Source: a virus
Taxonomy: Duplodnaviria > Heunggongvirae > Uroviricota > Caudoviricetes
Strand: one strand, 5' to 3'
DNA: 64,000 nucleotides
IMG/VR virus record: IMGVR_UViG_3300047444_000753
Location: 5,256 to 69,255 of that record
Part shown: one piece after another, positions 4,201-48,265 of the stretch
How the letters are laid out: each line of letters opens with the position of its first letter
Position numbering within the stretch: the first letter of the stretch is position 1
Program-made: the position numbers and the translations under genes
The notes under the pieces: model-generated
What the model was told of the DNA's origin: nothing
The model's database searches: none
Seen by the model: only the letters and a program-made list of their open reading frames with translations

Positions 4201-4407
4201 ATGGAATTTTTTACAAACGATATCGTCAAGCTTACTTCTGACGACTCGGTGAAGCTGGGCAAGATTGCTGAAATCGACGGGGACTTGATCCTCATCGGCG
4301 AAACATGGTACGATCTAAACGTATACAGCATTGAAGTCCTCTTCTCCGAGTCGTCAGGTATCGGGAATCCTCTAGTTGACACGGTCCAAACAACCGTGAT
4401 ACAATAG
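4201..4407 (+). CDS. hypothetical protein (68 aa), doubtful
   Basis: AT-rich ORF. Its 3' end contains a strong promoter that feeds the tRNA array. Confidence 0.3.
   Translation: MEFFTNDIVKLTSDDSVKLGKIAEIDGDLILIGETWYDLNVYSIEVLFSESSGIGNPLVDTVQTTVIQ
4376..4405 (+). promoter_or_regulatory. sigma70-like promoter TTGACA-18-TACAAT upstream of tRNA-Trp
   Basis: Exact -35 hexamer, 18-nt spacer, TACAAT -10 box. Confidence 0.6.
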
Positions 4408-4414
4408 AGACAAT

Positions 4415-4488
4415 GCGCAGGTAGTTTCAATTGGTTAAAATAACGGTCTCCAAAACCGTGGTTATAGGTTCGAGTCCTATCCGGCGTG
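4415..4488 (+). tRNA. tRNA-Trp (CCA)
   Basis: Cloverleaf folds. Anticodon loop CTCCAAA, T-arm ATAGG/TTCGAGT/CCTAT, one acceptor-stem mismatch, no encoded CCA. Confidence 0.75.
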
Positions 4489-5220: not shown

Positions 5221-5293
5221 GCCCTTGAAGCTCAGGTGGTAGAGCGCTGGTCTGAAGAACCAGAGGTTTCCGGTTCGACGCCGGAGAAGGGCA
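5221..5293 (+). tRNA. tRNA-Phe (GAA)
   Basis: Anticodon stem CTGGT/ACCAG with loop CTGAAGA. T-arm TCCGG/TTCGACG/CCGGA. Confidence 0.8.
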
Positions 5294-7236: not shown

Positions 7237-7361
7237 CTCCCGATCAAAGCCTCTGCTTGCATGCTCAAATTCGATTGAAGTACGCCGTCTTCTAGTAACG
7301 GATCCCGGACTTCACGGACGCTGGTATACCGCTCGCGGCTCTTTGAAACCGTATACCATAT

Positions 7362-7434
7362 GCCCCCGTAGCTCAGAGGACAGAGCAGGACCCTTCTAAA
7401 GTCTTGGCCGTAGGTTCGAATCCTACCGGGGGCA
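7362..7434 (+). tRNA. tRNA-Arg (TCT)
   Basis: Acceptor GCCCCCG/CGGGGGC, D-arm GCTC/GAGC, anticodon loop CTTCTAA, T-arm GTAGG/TTCGAAT/CCTAC. Confidence 0.75.
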
Positions 7435-7435
7435 C

Positions 7436-7879
7436 GTGAATACAGAATTCAATGACGCCATCTTCGATTACGAAGAACAGTCGTACACCATCAAAAATAA
7501 GTTCGAGTCCGGCACCACGGTCGAAATGGAATTTTGGCTGACGGAGACCAACAGACTCGACCCCACCCTGTACGTTGAAGTCGGACTGAGGTCCTACACC
7601 AAGAGACGGCAGCAGGATCGCCCCGACTTTGAGTTCTCTGTAACAGGCAAGGATGGCCTACGTCCTGCAATCTGGGCGACCAATCTCCTACTCAAGTTCC
7701 CTGAGTTCGTCCTCCGCGACTGGGATTTCCGGGACAAAGATCGAGTGGTCTACACCGTTTACTGGTCTGAATCTCGCCGCAGGAGCGTCTACCACAAATG
7801 GCTGTCTAGGCACGGCTTCTACTTCGATCAGGTGCTCGGTACCAAATGCCTGACAAAGGTATTTCCACGGGTCAAATAG
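7436..7879 (+). CDS. hypothetical protein (147 aa)
   Basis: GTG start 2 nt after tRNA-Arg. Coding-like composition. Confidence 0.6.
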   Translation: MNTEFNDAIFDYEEQSYTIKNKFESGTTVEMEFWLTETNRLDPTLYVEVGLRSYTKRRQQDRPDFEFSVTGKDGLRPAIWATNLLLKFPEFVLRDWDFRDKDRVVYTVYWSESRRRSVYHKWLSRHGFYFDQVLGTKCLTKVFPRVK

Positions 7880-7922
7880 TCGGTAGTGTATACTGAAAGT
7901 ACACTTACTATGAAGGAGCCTC

Positions 7923-8183
7923 ATGATGTCACTCTGGGCAATGGTACAAGGAGACCCAGTCTTCATGCGGCGCGTCAACGGATGGCTCGCCATCTTCTGG
8001 CTGGCCATGATTCCCGTCAGCATCGTCACCGGCTGGGTCAGCTCGGTCGAGTACGTCTCCGCACTCTCCATCTGGGCTCTGGTCTCTGGTCACTGGTCCG
8101 CTTGGCAGGCTGCTCGCGTCGAAGTCCGTCAGGAAGAGATCGAGAAGCAGCGTCAGGACGAATTGGACACCACAAACAACTAG
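7923..8183 (+). CDS. small membrane protein (2 predicted TM helices)
   Basis: AAGGAG RBS, then an ATG-ATG start. Hydrophobic segments WLAIFWLAMIPVSIV and ALSIWALVSG. Confidence 0.7.
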   Translation: MMSLWAMVQGDPVFMRRVNGWLAIFWLAMIPVSIVTGWVSSVEYVSALSIWALVSGHWSAWQAARVEVRQEEIEKQRQDELDTTNN

Positions 8184-19056: not shown

Positions 19057-19085
19057 TTGCACACTGATGTTTAGGTGTGTATAGT
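19057..19085 (+). promoter_or_regulatory. promoter TTGCAC-17-TATAGT
   Basis: Near-consensus -35 and -10. Upstream of the rIIA-like gene. Confidence 0.55.
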
Positions 19086-19124
19086 AGTTACTACAAGACA
19101 TACCAACGACAAAAGGACAAAGAA

Positions 19125-21260
19125 ATGATCATTGAGGCCAGCAAGAACGAAACCACCATCGTCTCCAACATCACTGTTGGCGAGGTGATCGAGATGACCG
19201 TCAGTGAAGCAGGCATGGCGTACGCAATGAGCGCGCTGTCCAACATGTACAACGACCCCAAGCTGGCAGTTATCCGTGAGTACTTCACGAATGCTCTGGA
19301 CTCCCACACCAAGGCCGGACAGACGGATCCGGTGCTGGTCAGCCTGCCGACCAACTACAACAAGATGTATGTTGTACAGGATTTCGGCGTCGGCATGGAC
19401 ATTGACACCATCCGGTCGGTCTACTCCAAGTACTGGGAGTCCACCAAGCGCGACTCGAACACCCAGATCGGCGCTTTCGGTCTTGGAGCCAAGTCGGCTC
19501 TGGCCATCGCCAACCAGTTCACGCTGGCCTCGGTAAAAGACGGTGTAAAGGTCACCGTGATCGTGCAGAAGGCAGGGGACGGTTCCGGCAAGCCTAAGAT
19601 GCTTGTGGTGTCCGCCATCGAAACCGATGAGCCCAACGGCGTCATGATCTCCATCCCGATCGATGACCCTTACACCTTCAACAACAAGGCCCGGGAATTC
19701 TTCCGCTTCGTGGATCCGGAACTGGTGCTCGTTGACGGCTACAAGCCCTCCTCGGTCTTCGATTCTGTGAAGCGTCTGGAGGACATCTCCGTCCCCGATG
19801 TAGACATCTACGTTGATCTGGACAACAGGTACGGCACCTCCTACGTCATCATGGGTCAGGTGGCCTACGCCCTGACCACCTCCAACATCGAAGAGGCTGC
19901 CGAGCGTCTGGGGATCTCCGCCAGCTACGAACTGCGCAGCATGCCGGTCTACTTCAAGGTCGGCATCGGCGATGTGAACCTGACCCCGAACCGCGAAGGC
20001 TTGCTCTTCGATGACAAGACCAACGCACTGATCGACTCCGTCATTGAAGCCTACTTGGAGACGGTCAAGAAGACGGCACAGGAGGAAATCGACGCGATCG
20101 AGAGCCGCTTCGATGTCTACTCGGTGGCCGAACGCTGGTCCGACCGTCTGGGTGTCAAGCTGGAATGGCGCGGGGAGAAAATCCGCACCAAGATCGGCAC
20201 GGCAGAGCCCTCCAGCACCATCAAGCGCACCTCATGGGACAAGTCCACCCACGGCAGCACGTACGATGTCAATGTCAAGGACCTCTCCACCAAGAAGATC
20301 ATCGTCACCGGCAAGCCGTTCGACAAGTACAAGCGGATGGCCAACTACATCACGGACTACTTGGCCATGATGGACATCAATAACGGTGCCAACTTCTACT
20401 TCCGCGAAAACTTGGATGAGCTGGACAACGAATGGGTTACCGAAAACCCGGCGTTCATCTTCGAGGACTTCGAGGATATGATCCAGCGCGTCAAGGACCA
20501 CCGGAAGGCCGAAAAGGCAGCTGCCAAGGCTCTGCTCCCGAAGGAGCTGCGGGACCGTCCGGCCAAGCTGGAGTACCCGGTGCTGGATATCGATGACAAA
20601 ACCCTCACCCGCACTGCCTACGACGCCATCCCTGCAGGATCCTTCTACATCCACGCTAATGATGTTGTGGACCCGGCAAAGCACAAGGACTTCTTCGAAG
20701 GCATCTACGCATCGCCCGGATACGTGGAATACCTGAAGGACATTGTGGGGGAGGGTGCAACGGTGGTCTTCATCTCCAAGGTCCGTTCGCTCGAATCCTT
20801 CAAGGCCCGCACAAAGGACATCCACGGCCTGCGTAGCATCCACGACGCCCTTCCTGATGTTCAGGAGCGCATCAACGAGCTCATGACCGATGATGTTCTG
20901 CGTGCCCGCAACCTGCGGCTCACACACACTGCTAACCGCAACCTCGCACGCCTCAGCCCCAAACTGATCGCGCAGATTCTGGATGACGAAGTGCGCGAAC
21001 AGCTGACCCCTGCGGACCCGGCACTGCTTGAGCAGGGTAACGCCGCTGTCTCGCTCTTCAGCTCCGTAATCCGCTTCGGTATCGCCCCGACCACCGTAAC
21101 ACTGCCGGAACTGGCAGAGGAGGCTGTGGAACTGGACACGTCGGATAAGTACCCGCTCACCGAGCTGCTCGGGATCTGGCCGAGCGAGGCTGCGCAGAAG
21201 GACATCATCCGCTACATGAACATGGTCTACACCGAGCAGTTGACACTTGTAGATGCATAA
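19125..21260 (+). CDS. rIIA: RIIA-like protein with N-terminal GHKL (HATPase_c) ATPase domain
   Basis: Bergerat-fold motifs: N-box EYFTNALDS, G1 DFGVGMD, G2 GAFGLGAKS. 711 aa (from ATG 19125), similar to T4 rIIA (725 aa). Followed by an rIIB-like gene. Confidence 0.7.
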   Translation: MIIEASKNETTIVSNITVGEVIEMTVSEAGMAYAMSALSNMYNDPKLAVIREYFTNALDSHTKAGQTDPVLVSLPTNYNKMYVVQDFGVGMDIDTIRSVYSKYWESTKRDSNTQIGAFGLGAKSALAIANQFTLASVKDGVKVTVIVQKAGDGSGKPKMLVVSAIETDEPNGVMISIPIDDPYTFNNKAREFFRFVDPELVLVDGYKPSSVFDSVKRLEDISVPDVDIYVDLDNRYGTSYVIMGQVAYALTTSNIEEAAERLGISASYELRSMPVYFKVGIGDVNLTPNREGLLFDDKTNALIDSVIEAYLETVKKTAQEEIDAIESRFDVYSVAERWSDRLGVKLEWRGEKIRTKIGTAEPSSTIKRTSWDKSTHGSTYDVNVKDLSTKKIIVTGKPFDKYKRMANYITDYLAMMDINNGANFYFRENLDELDNEWVTENPAFIFEDFEDMIQRVKDHRKAEKAAAKALLPKELRDRPAKLEYPVLDIDDKTLTRTAYDAIPAGSFYIHANDVVDPAKHKDFFEGIYASPGYVEYLKDIVGEGATVVFISKVRSLESFKARTKDIHGLRSIHDALPDVQERINELMTDDVLRARNLRLTHTANRNLARLSPKLIAQILDDEVREQLTPADPALLEQGNAAVSLFSSVIRFGIAPTTVTLPELAEEAVELDTSDKYPLTELLGIWPSEAAQKDIIRYMNMVYTEQLTLVDA

Positions 21261-21311: not shown

Positions 21312-22448
21312 ATGACAATGTTTTCCATGGCCGGTACGACTCCGGATCGCACCCTCTCGGTTATCTATGCCACTGGCGACACCGCCACCATCCCGGAATC
21401 GCACGACCGCTTCGAAGAGCTCCTTACCCTGCTCTTCTCGGGGGCCGAAGACGAAGAGGTCGGCGATCTCGTAGATGTGATGCTGGCTGTCACCAAGAGG
21501 ATGGCCCAGCTCTCCGAACGCGTCAGCATCCGTGGTCGCTCGGTCTACTTCGACGGAGACCAGCTGCGCGGCGAACTCGCTGACGTTCTCGTGGAGATCT
21601 TCGAGACCGGAAACCCAGAGTCCCTGCGCCCGGTGGTCAACTTCCTTGAGAAGGCCGCGACCAACCCATCCCGCCAGTCGGTCGATGACCTCTACCGCTG
21701 GATCACCAAGGGTGATCTCATCATCCACGAGGACGGCGACTTCCTTGCCTACAAGGGCACCCGCACCACGAAGGATGGAACCCGCACCTCGATCAACGAG
21801 GGAACGGCATTCGTGGACGGCGTGGAAGTCACCGGACACATCCCCAACCCGGACGGTGCTGTCGTCACGATGCCGCGTTCGGAGGTGGATGACAACTCCA
21901 TGGAAGGCTGCTCCACCGGACTGCACGCCGGTACTGCGGACTACGCGTTTGGATTCGCTTGGTCCGAGACGGTTCTGGTCAAGATCAACCCCCGTGACGT
22001 TGTGTCGGTCCCGACAGACTCCTCCAACCAGAAGCTGCGCGTCTGCCGCTACGTGGTTCAGGGCAAGGTCGAGGAGCGCCGCACCAGCCGGGTCTTCCGC
22101 GAGCCGGTTGCGGATGGGGTCACTGCGCCCCTGTTCACCGTGATCGGCTTCGACGTCTTCGATGCCAACGAAGATGACGGCGAGCTGGAGGTCGATGGGT
22201 CGATCGAAGAGTCCACGCTCGATGACTCGGTCCAGACTGACGAGGAGCGTCTGGCAAGCGAGGAGGCCCTTGCGGCTCTCCGCGAGAAGCTGCAGGATCT
22301 GCAGACTCCGCCGCAGAGCGAGGCCGAGGCAGAAGCTGAGGCCGAAGCTGCCGAAAAGGTCATCCGTGACGCCAAGGGCCGCTTCACCAGCGAGAGCGCG
22401 GCGAAGGCAGTCCGCAACGCCAAGGGACAGTTTACAAGGCAGTCCTAG
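21312..22448 (+). CDS. rIIB: RIIB-like protein
   Basis: Follows the rIIA-like gene. Acidic EAEAEA C-terminal tail. AAAGGA RBS. Confidence 0.55.
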   Translation: MTMFSMAGTTPDRTLSVIYATGDTATIPESHDRFEELLTLLFSGAEDEEVGDLVDVMLAVTKRMAQLSERVSIRGRSVYFDGDQLRGELADVLVEIFETGNPESLRPVVNFLEKAATNPSRQSVDDLYRWITKGDLIIHEDGDFLAYKGTRTTKDGTRTSINEGTAFVDGVEVTGHIPNPDGAVVTMPRSEVDDNSMEGCSTGLHAGTADYAFGFAWSETVLVKINPRDVVSVPTDSSNQKLRVCRYVVQGKVEERRTSRVFREPVADGVTAPLFTVIGFDVFDANEDDGELEVDGSIEESTLDDSVQTDEERLASEEALAALREKLQDLQTPPQSEAEAEAEAEAAEKVIRDAKGRFTSESAAKAVRNAKGQFTRQS

Positions 22449-24378: not shown

Positions 24379-24451
24379 GCCTTTGTAGCTCAGTGGATAG
24401 AGCACGGTCCTCCGGAGACCGGGGTCGGGAGTTCGATTCTCCCCAAGGGCA
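24379..24451 (+). tRNA. tRNA-Arg (CCG)
   Basis: D-arm GCTC/GAGC, anticodon stem CGGTC/GACCG with loop CTCCGGA, T-arm GGGAG/TTCGATT/CTCCC. Confidence 0.85.
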
Positions 24452-24476
24452 CTCCATCAACGACGAATGAGGACCC

Positions 24477-24983
24477 ATGATTCAGATCAATGTTGGCTGC
24501 GGAGAATTCCGTGCTGAAGGCTGGCTCAACGTAGACATCTACAGCGGAGACGAAGGCCCTCAGCCTGACATCATCGCTTCCGCCGATGACCTGCCGTTTG
24601 GCAGCGGTACCGTGGACCGGATCTACGCCGGACATATCCTTGAGCACATCGAGCTGAGCAAGGTTCCAAAGATCCTCCGGGAGTTCAAGCGTGTCCTCTC
24701 ACCCACTGGAGGTCTCCTTGTGGTCGGCCCTGATCTAGACCGCGCTGAGGTTGACTTCCCTGAAGAGGTCGAGCTGATCAAGACGGGCGGTCACCGCTGG
24801 CCCGGGGACGCACATCTCTGGGAGAGCCGGGAATCCACCATGCTGGCACTGCTAGTCACTGGCGGCTGGGATGTCGCTACAGCTGACGTACATGAGGTAT
24901 ATTCTTCCGGGACGTGGCCGGTAACCAGTGGTGTCGGCTGGCAGTTTGCAATTTTTGCAACAAAGCTCCCAGAGGTGGCCTGA
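24477..24983 (+). CDS. class I SAM-dependent methyltransferase
   Basis: Motif I VGCGEF and DLPF acidic loop. 168 aa. Confidence 0.65.
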   Translation: MIQINVGCGEFRAEGWLNVDIYSGDEGPQPDIIASADDLPFGSGTVDRIYAGHILEHIELSKVPKILREFKRVLSPTGGLLVVGPDLDRAEVDFPEEVELIKTGGHRWPGDAHLWESRESTMLALLVTGGWDVATADVHEVYSSGTWPVTSGVGWQFAIFATKLPEVA

Positions 24984-24984
24984 C

Positions 24985-25395
24985 GTGGGGATGTACACCG
25001 AAATCCACTTCAGGGCAGAGCTTATCAAAAATGTCCCGGAAGAAGTCATCAAAGTGCTGCAGCACCTGATTGATCGAGAATTCGCTCAAGAGTTTACTGA
25101 CCCGCTTCCAGATCACGAGCTCTTCCAGTGCCCTCGCTGGGATCTGTTGGCGCGCTGCAATTCCGCATACTTCCCGGACCACCCGGAGTCCTTTATCCAC
25201 GAGGACGAATACACTGGCCGATGGCACGTCACCATGAATGCCGACCTGAAGAACTACGGCGGAGAGATCGCGAAGTTCTTTGACTGGATCGATCCGTACG
25301 TCAGTGGGCATGAGGGCCAGTTCCTTGGGTACTCACTCTACGAAGAGTCCGATGATCCGATCATTTACCACAAACAATCAGCTAGCAGCTGGTAA
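24985..25395 (+). CDS. hypothetical protein
   Basis: GTG 24985 (or ATG 24991) after a GAGGTGG RBS. Confidence 0.55.
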   Translation: MGMYTEIHFRAELIKNVPEEVIKVLQHLIDREFAQEFTDPLPDHELFQCPRWDLLARCNSAYFPDHPESFIHEDEYTGRWHVTMNADLKNYGGEIAKFFDWIDPYVSGHEGQFLGYSLYEESDDPIIYHKQSASSW

Positions 25396-25396
25396 A

Positions 25397-25434
25397 GAAA
25401 TACCCCGCCAAATTCGATTCGACGGGGTATTTCT
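25397..25434. terminator. bidirectional terminator between convergent genes
   Basis: Perfect 12-bp stem AGAAATACCCCG/CGGGGTATTTCT, with A/T tracts on both sides. Confidence 0.75.
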
Positions 25435-25443
25435 ATGTCCTGA

Positions 25444-26472
25444 TTACTTCTGTGTTGCCAGCCATGCGTTCGCAGCTGTCTTGAGGTACGCCGGGAGGTT
25501 GTGGTGGGCGAGTGCGCGTTCCAGTGCCGCTACCAGATCCTTGTCCACCGTGTCTGCCGGAACAGGCGCAGGCGTCGGCTCCGGGGCTGGAGCAGGGGCA
25601 GGAGCCGGTGTCGGCTCAGGAGTGGGTGCCGGAGCCGGAGCAGGCGTCGGAAGCGGGAGATCGCCGCCTGTGAGCTGCTTGAACAGGCTCGCCAGCGTCG
25701 GCAGGTCGATGCCCATGAGGAAGGACTTGTCCTTGAGCATTTCGGGCCAGATGACCACCCATGCCTCATCTTCCTGCTGGGTGACGAATCCGCGAGTCAT
25801 GGCGACATCGGTAGCCCACGTGATGATGTCCACGCGGTCAGAGGCCGTGCCGGACGGGTCGTTGTACTTTCCGGCCAATACGGCGTGTCCGCCCCAGTCC
25901 GGGGATCCCGAGACATAGTCCCAGACCTTCTGGCGCTGCTGCGCGGTCTTCAGGCTCAGGCCGAGCAGGACGCCGCCGAAGAGGGCAATCGCCTTGTCCA
26001 AGGTATCCATGTCGCCCGGTGCGATCTTGGCGAAGGCGACAGGCTTGGCTCCGCCGATGCCACCCTTCATCAGAGCCTCAAGCATGGTCTGCATGTCCAC
26101 GCCGTTGTCGTCCTGCTTGGAGGAGCCGTCCGGCAGCGTCGGATCAAACTTGGGGTTGCCCGAGCGGCGGTACAGATCGAAGACATCGTTGAGTGCCGGA
26201 GCCTGCTCTGCGCCCAGCATGGCCGAAGTCACGAGACGACGGTGGTTGGCCACGGAGGTAGGGCCGCAGGTGCCGAAGCGGTCATTGGCTCCGAGCTCCC
26301 AGCCGGTTGCCTGTGAGAAGTGGTCCACGAAAGTCGGAACTTCCGGAGTAGTTCCAGTGAGGAAATCGCGGAGCATCAGTGCGGGCTTGTGGGAAGGGTT
26401 GCGCTTTCCGAGTTTTACGGACTCGAATGGGAATTCAGTGTTGTCAGAAGTAGACATTGGTGACTTTCTCAA
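25444..26472 (-). CDS. putative papain-like cysteine peptidase with Pro/Ala/Thr linker and C-terminal helical domain
   Basis: Candidate C/H/D triad (GTCGPT ... GGHAVLAG ... DIITW). TPAPAPAP linker resembles the endolysin linkers. Confidence 0.45.
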   Translation of the reverse strand: MRKSPMSTSDNTEFPFESVKLGKRNPSHKPALMLRDFLTGTTPEVPTFVDHFSQATGWELGANDRFGTCGPTSVANHRRLVTSAMLGAEQAPALNDVFDLYRRSGNPKFDPTLPDGSSKQDDNGVDMQTMLEALMKGGIGGAKPVAFAKIAPGDMDTLDKAIALFGGVLLGLSLKTAQQRQKVWDYVSGSPDWGGHAVLAGKYNDPSGTASDRVDIITWATDVAMTRGFVTQQEDEAWVVIWPEMLKDKSFLMGIDLPTLASLFKQLTGGDLPLPTPAPAPAPTPEPTPAPAPAPAPEPTPAPVPADTVDKDLVAALERALAHHNLPAYLKTAANAWLATQK

Positions 26473-26517
26473 AGATTTACAGGAGCATGGACTAGTATAC
26501 GCGGCAAAGCTGGGAAT

Positions 26518-27843
26518 TTACTCATAGTCCATGAATTTAATCTTGCCATTACGGGTCAAGAATGTGACTGCGGACGGATTTCCGACCAAACCAGTGCGGT
26601 GGCGGAAATATGTGGACTCTTTCTCGAATGCAGGCGTCCGGATCATGTGCTTGAAGTTCTGCTGCTCGTAAACGCCGGAGTGCAGGTGGCCGCAGATGAG
26701 AATATCGGCCTTACCGGGCTCGTGATCGCCCCAGTGCTGTCCGCGCCACCACTCCCAGTGCTTACCACGCGCCCACTGGTGTCCGTGGGCGTGCGTGATG
26801 ATGCTGCCAGCGACCTCTACAGTCGTCGTAAGCTCGTCGTAGGGCACAACTTCACAGGTGACGTGTCCGAAGGCCTCAGGATTGAAGGAAAGGGCCTCCG
26901 AGACGGCTACAAGGGCGTCAACTGCCCAAGAATCCGAGAAATCGGTCGCCACGGGCTCGCGCTGGGCCTCATCGTGGTTTCCGGGGACGGAAACGACGCG
27001 CAAATCGTCAGTCAGCGGGGCAAAAGCCTTGATTGTCTCGGTCATGAGCAGACGGAGGAGCTTTGCCTGCTGTGTGGTACTCAATTCGGTCCTGCGGGCG
27101 TTCCTACCGCCCTGTGAGACCATGCCCTCGATGCAATCGCCCACCCACGAGATGAGAATGGGACCGTACATGTCCCGGAGGGCGTGAGCCTTGTTCACGG
27201 CCAGCTGGAGGGATTCCCGGTAGCGTTTTACGATTCCCTCCGTACCATCAGCATCGGATTTTCCGAGCTGGAGATCTCCTGCGGCGAATACGAAGGCGTA
27301 ATCTCCGGGAGAATCGACTTCGGCGTGCGGTACGACGTCCTTGATGTTCTCAACGATGTACGCAATGTCCTGAATGGTCTTACGCTTGCGGATGTTGAAC
27401 TTGTAGTAGGAGAGCCAGTCACCGCCGTAGGCCTGCCACTGGCGGACCTGAATGGTCTCATCGATGACCTCGAAAACGTCGGGATCAATCTGGAAAAAGC
27501 GCAGGATGTCGGAGAAATCCTTCAGATCCGGCTTGTTCTGTGCCGGGGAGCAGACCTCGCCCTCATCGCCCTTGACCGTCGCCTGCGGTTCCCAGCCCTT
27601 GGGCGGCTTTCCGAGGAAAGGCTGCACAGGTTTGTCGCTCTTCTTGGCGTGGAACCTGCGGTGATTTGACAAAGCCTTGCGTGATATGGATATATTGTAG
27701 GTAGAGAGAAGTCGGCGGGAGATCTCGGCAGACTCCACTTGCTCATCGAACCAGCCGTGGATCTCATTTGCGATATTGTCTCGCAAATTGCAGGTGAGGC
27801 ACTGTGGATTGTAGTCAAACAGTGCGGTTTTTTCTGTTGTCAT
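26518..27843 (-). CDS. calcineurin-like metallophosphoesterase with N-terminal CxxC zinc-finger
   Basis: MPP motifs GDLQLG, GNHDE, GHLH; N-terminal CLTC. Confidence 0.7.
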   Translation of the reverse strand: MTTEKTALFDYNPQCLTCNLRDNIANEIHGWFDEQVESAEISRRLLSTYNISISRKALSNHRRFHAKKSDKPVQPFLGKPPKGWEPQATVKGDEGEVCSPAQNKPDLKDFSDILRFFQIDPDVFEVIDETIQVRQWQAYGGDWLSYYKFNIRKRKTIQDIAYIVENIKDVVPHAEVDSPGDYAFVFAAGDLQLGKSDADGTEGIVKRYRESLQLAVNKAHALRDMYGPILISWVGDCIEGMVSQGGRNARRTELSTTQQAKLLRLLMTETIKAFAPLTDDLRVVSVPGNHDEAQREPVATDFSDSWAVDALVAVSEALSFNPEAFGHVTCEVVPYDELTTTVEVAGSIITHAHGHQWARGKHWEWWRGQHWGDHEPGKADILICGHLHSGVYEQQNFKHMIRTPAFEKESTYFRHRTGLVGNPSAVTFLTRNGKIKFMDYE

Positions 27844-27945
27844 ACTGGGTATCGTACCACATTTTGGTGTGGTAGTATAACTTTCATGCCGAATACGACA
27901 TTGACACCCGCAAATAGTGAAACACCATCAACAAACGAAGTGGAT

Positions 27946-46575: not shown

Positions 46576-48012
46576 TTAGCGTCTGCGTATGGATGGCCTG
46601 TGTGGCTGCGTACGCCCTGTTGCCAGTCCTGTGGGTAGTTTACGGTGCGCTGCGGAAGTAGTGGACACCTTACCCACTTTGAGCTCCTTAGGCGGCGTCA
46701 CGAGGGTTGCAATGACGCCCCAGACAAACGCGTCCATCCTGTCCGGAGAATAGGTCGAGTTGGCCGGGTCGAAGAACAGTAGCTGCTCCTCTAGCGTCGG
46801 CATGTAGTCCACGAACCTGACACGCTTCTGCTGCATGGCAATCACGACAGGTTCCGCACGGACGGTCTTACCCTTGACGGCGACCACCAGCATGACCTTC
46901 AGGGTCGGATCGACGGCATTGATCGCCATCTGCAGGAGCTGTCCGCCCTGATTCTTCTCCACGACAACGAACTTGGTGCGGTGCGCTTCGGCGGCATCGA
47001 CAACCTGCTTGGCCCAGATATCCGGCGAGGCACGCAGCGAGTAGTCACCCAGCACGTAGGCACGGCGGCGGGAGAGGTCACGCTCGGCTGTGGCACCGAT
47101 GGCAATGATGCCGCACTCGTCGGCTGCGGACGGATCGCCGGAGACGGACGGATCCACGGCGATGATGCGCAGCGGCAGGTTCGGCACGATCTCGTTGTCC
47201 AGAAGACGCGCATCGTCAATCATGCTCTGCTTGAAGACCAGACCTTCGGCGTCGTCCAGCATCTGCCCGTAGAGCTCCTGCTTGGCGAGATCCGAGTTGC
47301 CGTATCTGCGGACAAGGTTTTCGATGTACAGGTTGGACAGCGAGGTGTTATCGAAGGTGGAGCCACGGATGATGTTGATGCGCTCCTTGGGGTCCTGAGA
47401 GAGCTTCATCAGATCCTGCATGACCTTGGTACGCTTGGGCGTCGTGGCAAGCAGGATCTGCGGATTCTGCCCCAGACGGGTGGCAGCGATCATGTTGGAG
47501 TACAGCGTGGCACCGGAGGAGTCCACGGTGGTCTTCCACGCCGCAAACTCGTCCCCAACCGAAAAGTGGAACTGCGGACCACGGGCGGAGTCGGGGGATT
47601 CCGAGGACAATAGTAGGGCACTGGAGCCGTTAGGCCAGTGCAGGGAGGTGGTGGACGGCTTGTACTCTGGCATCTCGGACGGCGAGTGCACGGACATGAC
47701 GCCGGACTCTCCAGTGATCACGGTACTTCGGTGGTCGGCGGCACGACGGGCGGCAATGCCGATACGGCAGCCCGGGTTTTCCAAGGCCTTGCGCTTAATC
47801 CAGTGGGCGATGGCCAGCGTCTTTCCGAAACCACGACCAGCGACAAGGGCGGTAATTCCCCAGTCACCGTCAGGAATCATCTGCTCTGGACGCAGCCAGA
47901 ATTTGGCGTCGAACTGCAGATTGGCCGCGTCTTCCATTGATAGTTCATTAAGAACTTCGAGACGCTGTGCCTCCGGCAGTTCGGCTAGTTGTTCAGCTAG
48001 GGATTTTCCCAT
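46576..48012 (-). CDS. terminase large subunit
   Basis: Walker A-like GRGFGKT, ATPase and nuclease blocks. 478 aa from ATG 48012, with AAGAAGG RBS. Confidence 0.85.
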   Translation of the reverse strand: MGKSLAEQLAELPEAQRLEVLNELSMEDAANLQFDAKFWLRPEQMIPDGDWGITALVAGRGFGKTLAIAHWIKRKALENPGCRIGIAARRAADHRSTVITGESGVMSVHSPSEMPEYKPSTTSLHWPNGSSALLLSSESPDSARGPQFHFSVGDEFAAWKTTVDSSGATLYSNMIAATRLGQNPQILLATTPKRTKVMQDLMKLSQDPKERINIIRGSTFDNTSLSNLYIENLVRRYGNSDLAKQELYGQMLDDAEGLVFKQSMIDDARLLDNEIVPNLPLRIIAVDPSVSGDPSAADECGIIAIGATAERDLSRRRAYVLGDYSLRASPDIWAKQVVDAAEAHRTKFVVVEKNQGGQLLQMAINAVDPTLKVMLVVAVKGKTVRAEPVVIAMQQKRVRFVDYMPTLEEQLLFFDPANSTYSPDRMDAFVWGVIATLVTPPKELKVGKVSTTSAAHRKLPTGLATGRTQPHRPSIRRR

Positions 48013-48265
48013 GGGGAGCCTTCTTTGTAGACAAAGGCTCGACAAGCAGGAACAGGGCGGACGGGCCGAGATCCTTCTGGTGTGCAAGTAGCTGGTCCGC
48101 TACGTCAACCGGGAGCCCCTGTGGCAGTGTGGGGGATAGCCGGTGCAGGCACTCGTTTTCCGGGAAATGTTCGTTGGTAATCGACGTTGCAATTTCTGCA
48201 AGTCGCGCCGTTCCGGGGTCTTCCGCCAGAAGAAATGTCGCACCGTGGTATGTAGAATTCGTCAT
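47993..48265 (-). CDS. hypothetical protein overlapping the terminase start (small-terminase candidate)
   Basis: 90 aa. GGAGT immediately abuts the ATG (no spacer), so ribosome-binding support is weak. Ends 20 nt inside the terminase gene. Confidence 0.4.
   Translation of the reverse strand: MTNSTYHGATFLLAEDPGTARLAEIATSITNEHFPENECLHRLSPTLPQGLPVDVADQLLAHQKDLGPSALFLLVEPLSTKKAPHGKIPS

Follow-up and report, generated by a model that had tools for sequence, protein, structure and literature searches.

Two adjacent leftward genes in a 64,000-nucleotide (nt) stretch of a tailed-phage genome (Caudoviricetes; positions 5,256 to 69,255 of IMG/VR record IMGVR_UViG_3300047444_000753; hereafter, the window) encode a nuclease of 441 amino acids (aa) and a peptidase, and the unit that they form is a conserved monocistronic nuclease operon carrying an extra, accessory peptidase gene in one sub-clade of relatives. 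The nuclease, annotated in actinophages as 'MRE11-like exonuclease' (phrog_284), is the conserved Mre11/DP1-type metallophosphoesterase of this lineage, a family that is already known. Its neighbor is, as judged by its predicted structure, a xylellain-type papain-family (C1-like) cysteine peptidase from an unannotated clade. The original prediction, made from the DNA letters alone, had described two leftward open reading frames (ORFs) of 441 and 342 aa, which are present as described (the latter probably encoding 337 aa), and had proposed that they form a paired defence, anti-defence or abortive-infection module. This proposal was not upheld, as the nuclease is conserved alone, the peptidase is rarely paired with it, and neither protein matches a PADLOC defence model at E ≤ 0.01. 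The nuclease and the peptidase are very probably not a functional pair and are linked only by position, and the explanation that is moderately favored as a whole is that of one leftward transcription unit, rather than a two-protein system, the peptidase of which would act at the lysis stage.

The window is part of a large soil actinobacteriophage genome with 28 tRNA genes and is collinear at the protein level with Arthrobacter phage Racecar (194 kb), between approximately 87 and 145 kb of the Racecar genome. The earlier description of the genome as transcribed almost entirely rightward was accurate: among window genes with a Racecar counterpart, only the nuclease gene and a terminase gene (46576 to 48087, minus strand) point leftward, and both are inverted in Racecar as well. 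No match to the region was obtained by megablast against 50,697 phage records, and a protein-level search was needed to find relatives, Racecar, Mimi and Talia1610 being recovered by tblastn with the nuclease. The features of the unit, in window coordinates, are the following.

25396 to 25434: intrinsic, probably bidirectional, terminator hairpin, between the converging peptidase gene and a rightward 155-aa gene
25444 to 26472, minus strand: peptidase gene, a 342-aa ORF with a probable start at ATG 26457 (337 aa)
Peptidase residues approximately 17 to 60: conserved N-terminal extension
Peptidase residues N63, C69 and H196: marking the predicted papain-fold catalytic domain
Peptidase residues approximately 274 to 305: Pro/Ala linker
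Peptidase residues 306 to 323 and 328 to 341: C-terminal two-helix tail with a near-invariant W337
26473 to 26517 (45 nt), minus strand: terminator-free intergenic spacer that separates the nuclease gene from the peptidase gene
26518 to 27843, minus strand: nuclease gene, 441 aa
Nuclease residues 1 to 65: Cys2-His2 finger with three helices
Nuclease residues approximately 80 to 155: beta-rich segment, possibly OB-like
Nuclease residues approximately 180 to 441: metallophosphoesterase domain, with D190-L-Q192, G235-D236, N289-H290, H353 and H386-x-H388
27851 to 27859, minus strand: extended -10 element TGGTACGAT of the leftward unit, ending 7 nt before the nuclease ATG
27870 to 27878, plus strand: mirror-image extended -10 element TGGTAGTAT of the DUF3310 gene, ending 7 nt before ATG 27886

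The distribution of the two genes among relatives carries the argument (loci are given L numbers and peptidase homologs P numbers). In Racecar, L093, L094 and L095, the nuclease gene occupies the same position and is likewise inverted, on its own. In Racecar, L093 and L095, this site has an HNH endonuclease gene or tRNAs on one side and a block of small genes, glycosyltransferase and DUF932 on the other, while the neighbors in L094 differ on one side; Mimi and Talia1610 have nuclease matches at similar coordinates and on the same strand. Conservation as a core gene at a syntenic position, which the original prediction had itself named as counting against a defence module, is thus the pattern displayed by the nuclease gene and, because the nuclease is an already-annotated core gene, candidacy for defence or anti-defence can be set aside. 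The peptidase gene is present in the window, L003, L010 to L014 and L093, with identities to the window copy of 78-85% in L010 and L011 and 65% in L093, and is absent after the nuclease gene in Racecar, L094 and L095. Searches by tblastn with the peptidase gave no match in the three cultured relatives (Racecar, Mimi and Talia1610) and, at E ≤ 1e-5, a single match among the 50,697 phage records, in the metagenomic myovirus MW202816 (L002). The idea that the cassette might appear as an indel in related phages therefore proved right for the peptidase gene, though not for the cassette as a whole. An Mre11-like neighbor of the peptidase was found in 6 of 80 viral loci (L010 to L014 and the separately retrieved L003), all of which have the gene order of the window lineage, and in none of 50 bacterial-genome loci. 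As far as these sequence comparisons reach, the peptidase gene is an accessory (optional) gene located between the nuclease gene and the terminator of the unit in one sub-clade. In L093, the nuclease and peptidase genes are separated by a NUMOD3 homing-endonuclease-like gene (7295-8041) on the opposite strand.

Transcription of the unit would begin at an extended -10 promoter, one half of a back-to-back divergent pair, run through the nuclease gene into the peptidase gene and end at a strong hairpin. The divergent promoter region recognized earlier was confirmed and could be sharpened to this pair, the leftward element of which is conserved in eight relatives: TG-n-TA-nn-AT is invariant, 6-7 nt ahead of the nuclease start codon, in all eight relatives that were aligned, and no Shine-Dalgarno sequence precedes the nuclease ATG in the same alignment. 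The arrangement TGnTAnnAT-N7-ATG occurs three times in the window, against 0.2 occurrences expected, the second occurrence being the mirror-image one on the plus strand at 27870-27888. The rightward element, as read from the alignment, is seen also in L003, L010 and L011, and the ATG at 27886 that follows it is in frame with a rightward ORF assigned to DUF3310 by domain match. A palindrome, TACCACA-N6-TGTGGTA (27855-27874, 7-bp arms), corresponds to the two back-to-back TGnTA elements. Because the extended -10 element is placed 7 nt before the ATG and a Shine-Dalgarno sequence is lacking, the nuclease mRNA is probably leaderless, a reading drawn from actinobacterial promoter architecture. Comparative alignment and RNA folding were used here instead of simple promoter and terminator scans; a two-hexamer sigma-70 promoter scan of the region returned nothing, and a simple terminator scan missed the main hairpin and gave only a smaller stem that overlaps it.

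Downstream of the nuclease stop codon, the best local fold within 90 nt, which take in the spacer and the start of the peptidase gene, reaches only -3.9 kcal/mol, and relatives that lack the peptidase carry a terminator of -22 to -25 kcal/mol directly after the nuclease stop. Because no terminator separates the two genes and the peptidase gene lies ahead of the terminator of the unit, the genes should be co-transcribed. The perfect 12-bp bidirectional terminator of the original prediction was corroborated by the match of its arms and by folding statistics on both strands. The arms extend from 25396 to 25413 and from 25417 to 25434, with the outer 12 bp perfect; in the leftward RNA, the hairpin has 18 pairs and a folding energy of -28 kcal/mol (z -6.7) and is flanked by A and U runs, with UUU after it, while the plus-strand hairpin folds at -20 kcal/mol (z -3.2), and none of 200 shuffles folded as well on either strand. 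The stable GC-rich stem-loop, the U run and the location at the end of a transcription unit are those of an intrinsic terminator, which probably acts in both directions. A hairpin of the same layout (A run, GC stem, U run) is found no more than about 15 nt after the peptidase stop in L010, L011, L012, L013 and L093, and its equivalent stands directly after the nuclease stop in Racecar, L094 and L095, where the peptidase is absent; the equivalent hairpins in eight relatives have A and U runs on both sides.

Recognition of the 441-aa protein as a calcineurin-like phosphoesterase was sound. It matches Pfam Metallophos above the cutoff (E 8.7e-5; score 23.5 bits, cutoff 21.5), matches phrog_284, 'exonuclease', with an E-value of 1e-70, and NCBIfam gives weak matches to the PolII small subunit and PdeM. 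A tblastn search recovered homologs of this ordinary DNA-metabolism gene from 818 phage records (Mycobacterium, Propionibacterium/Cutibacterium, Streptomyces, Gordonia and others), and many of them are annotated as 'MRE11 double-strand break endo/exonuclease' or 'exonuclease'. The metal-binding residues D190, G235-D236, N289-H290, H353 and H386/H388 are invariant in 54 homologs, and the N-terminal CxxC finger noted earlier is part of an invariant set, C15, C18 ... H61, H65 (CxxC…HxxxH). The AlphaFold model has a predicted local distance difference test score (pLDDT) of 89, and the predicted folds of both the nuclease and the peptidase are assigned with high confidence; the beta-rich segment at 87-153, together with extra aligned residues, would possibly fit an OB-like domain. 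The protein would most likely act as an exo/endonuclease on phage DNA ends in replication or recombination. Cluster K mycobacteriophage proteins annotated as MRE11-like, which may be homologs of the window nuclease, have been treated as DNA-metabolism genes, and their moderate to high toxicity upon overexpression was attributed to nonspecific nuclease activity (PMC11797047).

Mre11/SbcD is the label that SEA-PHAGES annotators give to this nuclease family. With Mre11/SbcD, the window protein shares the metallophosphoesterase fold, with its metal-binding motifs intact, and a gene location among DNA-metabolism genes, but it differs in having D-L-Q instead of D-x-H as motif I and in possessing an N-terminal zinc finger and beta-rich module, which Mre11 is without. 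Furthermore, no Rad50/SbcC gene is annotated beside the nuclease gene in the window or in eight relatives, or anywhere in Racecar at 1-100 kb and 105-172 kb. As modeled, the protein resembles DP1, the exonuclease small subunit of archaeal PolD, more closely in structure, so that the 'Mre11' label undersells a predicted DP1-like architecture; the weak NCBIfam matches to the PolII small subunit are a further likeness to DP1 and the eukaryotic polymerase B-subunits. Identity with DP1 is only 13%, however, no DP2-like partner is known for the window nuclease, and Racecar encodes a family-A polymerase. The N-terminal finger presumably differs from the N-terminal region of DP1 as well. In L012 to L014, the N-terminal 155 or so residues are conserved as a module despite a different subtype of catalytic domain, overall identity to the window nuclease being 30-34%. 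The finger and beta-rich module of these mosaic nucleases (L012:3893-5335, L013:3306-4700 and L014:4532-5902) is nearly identical between L012 and L011, which suggests domain-level mosaicism. In MW202816 (7402-9092), an 'archaeal DNA polymerase II' and a 'Zn-ribbon protein' lie about 2 kb from the peptidase homolog; phmmer gave no match between the window nuclease and either protein.

The peptidase probably starts at ATG 26457 and has 337 aa, because an identical database protein (P0001) is of this length, the N-termini of homologs align to M6, and a GAGAAAG Shine-Dalgarno-like sequence precedes the ATG. In 59 aligned homologs, N63, C69 (motif FGTCGP), H196 (motif WGGHAV), E236 and W242 are invariant. 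The model (pLDDT 90.6) has the two lobes of a papain fold, the L lobe being helical and the R lobe a beta-barrel, with C69 opening a helix (69-86) and H196 in a strand (192-204), and N63 stands six residues before C69, an Asn where papain has Gln19 ahead of Cys25. The counterpart of the papain N-S-W sequence is, by reading of the sequence only, probably [IV]-[TS]-W219, in which the Trp is kept and the Asn is not. Of the Cys/His/Asp triad in the original prediction, the Cys and His thus stood, while Asp as a third residue was not established; as the position of papain Asn175 appears to be Ile or Val in this family, only a putative Cys69/His196 dyad, with Asn63 in the oxyanion position, is claimed. 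The Pro/Ala (TPAPAP) linker and helical tail had been identified correctly and occupy the segments listed above. An intein at C69 in three homologs was counted as additional support for the catalytic Cys.

The three intein-bearing homologs (P0249, P0287 and P0356) have an insert of approximately 270 residues immediately before the catalytic Cys, which starts with Cys, contains the LAGLIDADG-type sequence 'YLAGAFDGEG' and ends in '...GLASHN', followed by 'CGPTS'; the active-site Cys of the peptidase would serve as the +1 splicing nucleophile. Another homolog, P0332, has three Cys/His-rich repeats (NW-x-WC-x-KC...AG-x-P...GG-x-H-x-H-x-GS) in its C-terminal 145 residues, a region that is without a Pfam match and may be a binding module.

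Sequence searches connect the peptidase to a large family and to little else. A word-indexed protein search gave 410 homologs, essentially all of them unannotated metagenomic proteins without a Pfam domain, and an exhaustive profile search gave 4,313 cluster representatives (clusters at 50% identity) at E ≤ 1e-3 and 2,755 at E ≤ 1e-10. Members of the family are carried by phages and prophages whose hosts are Actinomycetota or Chloroflexota; the hosts among 51 species genomes comprise Actinomycetota (Streptomyces, Frankia, Microbispora, Nakamurella, Acidimicrobiia and Thermoleophilia) and some Chloroflexota. Pfam Peptidase_C1 was not matched at E ≤ 1, and the family profile reached no C1 chain among PDB sequences, so that membership in C1 is read from predicted structure only. 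Matches to internalin K, TonB and E2 enzymes in Pfam, NCBIfam and PDB were rejected as compositional, being low-complexity matches of the Pro/Ala linker; apart from the linker, the only library match is to the unnamed phrog_19005. Against a viral structure library, the model matched 'Peptidase_C1' proteins of uncultured tailed phages, and it has weak fold matches to mycobacteriophage Lysin A, a phage muramidase and PeiR.

Xylellain and the short bacterial C1A enzymes resemble the peptidase in having the Cys at the start of a long helix, the His on a beta-strand, a polar residue six positions before the Cys and, preceding the catalytic domain, an N-terminal extension. They differ from it in that sequence similarity is not detectable, that the peptidase has Asn for the oxyanion Gln and apparently Ile/Val for the triad Asn, and that it adds the Pro/Ala linker and the C-terminal helical tail. 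A phylogenomic survey found that xylellain-type C1A genes were acquired by Caudoviricetes and assigned no function to them (PMC10380794). The lysis-cassette association that is seen in the peptidase family is not described for xylellain-type enzymes.

The gene neighborhoods of its homologs tilt the balance modestly toward a lysis-stage role of the peptidase in the envelope. Because the family is repeatedly found beside, or fused to, endolysin or holin genes, the peptidase would build up in the cytoplasm and act at lysis, when, after the membrane has been breached, it would cleave peptide bonds of the envelope, whether in the stem peptides or cross-bridges of peptidoglycan or in protein associated with the wall, and would thereby supply the peptidase activity that accompanies a glycosidase or amidase endolysin. 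It may be held latent by its conserved N-terminal extension, in the manner of a papain-family prosegment, although this analogy is speculative.

Several loci illustrate the association. In MW202816, the peptidase homolog overlaps the end of an N-acetylmuramoyl-L-alanine amidase gene; L004 has the order Amidase_2, a 79-aa membrane protein and the peptidase homolog; L007 has a PG_binding/CHAP-like protein, a 75-aa membrane protein and the peptidase homolog; and in L008 the peptidase homolog is followed by an Rv2525c/GH25-like protein and a 122-aa multi-transmembrane protein. A prophage-looking locus of Microbispora corallina consists of large upstream genes, CHAP, the peptidase homolog and a 124-aa multi-transmembrane protein. 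Neighbors were analyzed by all-ORF homology clustering, iteration of hidden Markov models (HMMs) and bulk Pfam scans of high-GC loci. Iterated HMMs from three hydrolase seeds placed a hydrolase within 2 kb of the peptidase in 23 of 82 nonredundant loci, always on the same strand and in 21 cases within 300 bp, where chance adjacency to one specific gene type in a phage of 60-200 genes is roughly estimated at 1-3%. Bulk Pfam scans of the neighbors gave GH25 (6), Amidase_2 (3), NlpC/P60 (2), Rv2525c-like (2), PG_binding_1 (4) and an r1t holin. Holin-like genes, scored as small ORFs on the same strand that contain two or more hydrophobic segments, were about fivefold denser within 1.5 kb of the peptidase gene (0.099 per kb) than in distal sequence of the same loci (0.019 per kb), and a hydrolase or holin-like neighbor was present in 33 of the 82 loci. 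Some members are fusions: P0104 begins with a Phage_holin_2 domain (E 3e-15) and P0300 with an r1t-holin-like segment, N-terminal extensions of one to four transmembrane segments occur in at least ten representatives, and C-terminal transmembrane extensions occur in five. In other representatives, Ig-like domains are inserted before the conserved Trp-containing C-terminal helix. Pfam scans of 20 long family members left the extensions almost unrecognized beyond the two holin-like segments and an Ig-like domain. The transmembrane-fused homologs include P0104, P0300, P0247, P0264, P0326, P0288, P0377, P0252 and P0289, among others, and some homologs have a single N-terminal transmembrane segment that resembles the signal anchor of SAR (signal-arrest-release) endolysins.

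A number of observations weigh against a lysis role, some of them concerning the window copy itself. It is not beside a recognizable hydrolase or holin gene, its neighbors being the nuclease gene and the terminator; it shares a transcript with a DNA-metabolism gene under an apparently host-type promoter; and tblastn of the hydrolases and holin-like proteins that neighbor its homologs found no counterpart in the window. Nor was a cell-wall-binding domain recognized in the protein, in which the apparent Ile or Val at the Asn175 position leaves a full catalytic triad unsupported; all of the structures are predictions, and its role is putative. Across the family, about 60% of loci are without a recognizable lysis neighbor, and among bacterial-genome loci only 6 of 50 have one and many neighbors are ordinary host genes; the little lysis signal and the mostly host genes returned there by the bulk Pfam scan weaken the universality of the lysis link. 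In Racecar, no endolysin is annotated at 1-100 kb and 105-172 kb, and a 'glycoside hydrolase' (gp253), far from the nuclease region, is the only candidate. Finally, C1 enzymes normally cut proteins. Because the known peptidoglycan-cleaving papain-like enzymes fall in the CHAP/NlpC-P60/amidase cluster and not in C1 (PMC10318531), the substrate of the peptidase may be protein and not peptidoglycan. A role as a capsid-maturation protease was considered and rejected, as Racecar has its own, annotated next to the portal and capsid genes, and the sampled neighborhoods rarely held head genes.

Compared with the cysteine-peptidase modules of phage endolysins (CHAP, NlpC/P60, the peptidase domains of actinophage Lysin A, and PeiW/PeiR), the peptidase has the papain-like fold with a Cys/His active site, lacks a signal peptide as they do, and shows the weak fold matches to Lysin A and PeiR mentioned above. 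Members of its family lie beside glycosidase or amidase and holin genes, which is the layout of split endolysins. It differs from these modules in its full two-lobe C1 architecture, as opposed to a minimal CHAP or NlpC core, in the absence of a recognized wall-binding domain, in the location of the window copy outside a lysis cassette, and in that, among the 50,697 phage records, tblastn at E ≤ 1e-5 finds a homolog in MW202816 alone.

The same neighborhoods can be read in another way, in which the peptidase is a protein-directed protease that works around lysis or host takeover, its target being a phage lysis protein (a holin or endolysin) that it processes or activates, a proteinaceous envelope layer that it degrades, or a host protein. 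Such a protease would be in keeping with the separate clustering of known wall-cleaving papain-like enzymes (PMC10318531), with the holin-like fusions, which could mean action on or with the holin, and with the frequent presence of a complete hydrolase gene beside family members, which need not then be wall hydrolases themselves. No candidate protein substrate is evident, however, and this explanation is possible but unlikely. A further point against it is that endolysins split into one gene for the peptidase and another for the glycosidase or amidase are commonly annotated in actinophages and would give the same gene order. A bolder proposal is that the family constitutes a kind of lysis protein not recognized before, used by phages of monoderm Actinomycetota and Chloroflexota: a C1 protease, latent like a zymogen, that would be released or anchored via holins and would remove a proteinaceous envelope layer or activate the lysis machinery, thereby providing a third lysis function with a logic like that of LysB or the spanins, and that would have moved, in the Racecar-like lineage, from the lysis cassette to a DNA-metabolism promoter; this proposal is distinctly doubtful.

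Two further explanations take their cue from the arrangement of the unit in the window. That its genes constitute a functional module for defence, anti-defence, superinfection exclusion or an abortive-infection-like response, whether by joint action or by control of one protein by the other, would account for two adjacent, co-oriented and co-transcribed genes that have their own promoter and terminator and run against the main direction of the genome, for an adjacency that is kept in L012 to L014 despite the different nuclease subtype, and for the toxicity of overexpressed actinophage proteins that may be homologs of the window nuclease (PMC11797047). This toxicity was, however, attributed to nonspecific nuclease activity of ordinary replication genes, and the distribution of the genes largely refutes the module: Racecar, L094 and L095 have the nuclease by itself at the same position, pairing is absent from the bacterial-genome loci and confined among viral loci to the gene order of the window lineage, and in L093 the two genes are separated by a homing-endonuclease-like gene on the other strand. 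As the GC content of the two-gene unit is not atypical for the window and PADLOC models are not matched by either protein, a functional module is highly improbable. It is likewise improbable that the peptidase gene is a passenger without a role, which recombination would have brought into the variable stretch from the HNH gene to the nuclease gene and which would be kept only transiently. Turnover in this interval is apparent from the absence from Racecar of its methyltransferase gene, phrog_4334 gene, a tRNA and the peptidase gene, and from the homing endonuclease gene that it contains in L093, but the peptidase has all of its catalytic and family-invariant residues intact, and its retention at 65-86% identity in at least eight diverged relatives, always between the nuclease gene and the terminator, argues for selection. 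The lysis-stage peptidase continues to be the preferred reading.

For annotation, the peptidase family is large (about 4,300 clusters at 50% identity), has no Pfam family and reveals its papain-C1 nature only by structure prediction. If the lysis role is true, the family would enlarge the endolysin toolbox against high-GC Gram-positive bacteria by a new catalytic module, such as Streptomyces and Frankia, and would allow better annotation of thousands of soil phage and prophage genes. The leaderless extended -10 pair, the inteins at the catalytic Cys and the DP1-like architecture of the nuclease should also be useful to annotators of actinophages.

Several other features of the window were observed in passing. 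The other inverted gene (46576-48087, minus strand) encodes the terminase large subunit, as in Racecar (gp209/gp210), and upstream of it (to approximately 48265) is a small leftward ORF with its ATG 5 nt after TACAAT; this ORF, too, may be leaderless. An extended -10-like element (TGATACAAT, 4397-4415) is located 9 nt before the first tRNA (tRNA-Trp) of the region of 28 tRNAs and may be the promoter of the tRNA array. Two genes at 19077-21260 and 21312-22448 (727 and 378 aa) match the hypothetical proteins gp165 and gp166 of Racecar. Pfam HATPase_c_3 and Phage_T4_rIIB are found in the probable L095 counterparts, so that the window genes may form a pair of the rIIA/rIIB type. Gene content varies between the HNH and nuclease genes; what the window has at 24379-25395 is without a counterpart there in Racecar and consists of tRNA-Arg(ccg), a small methyltransferase gene (24477-24983) and the gene for a phrog_4334 protein (24928-25395). 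The latter two ORFs overlap by 56 nt as listed, so that the phrog_4334 ORF probably starts later, near 24988.

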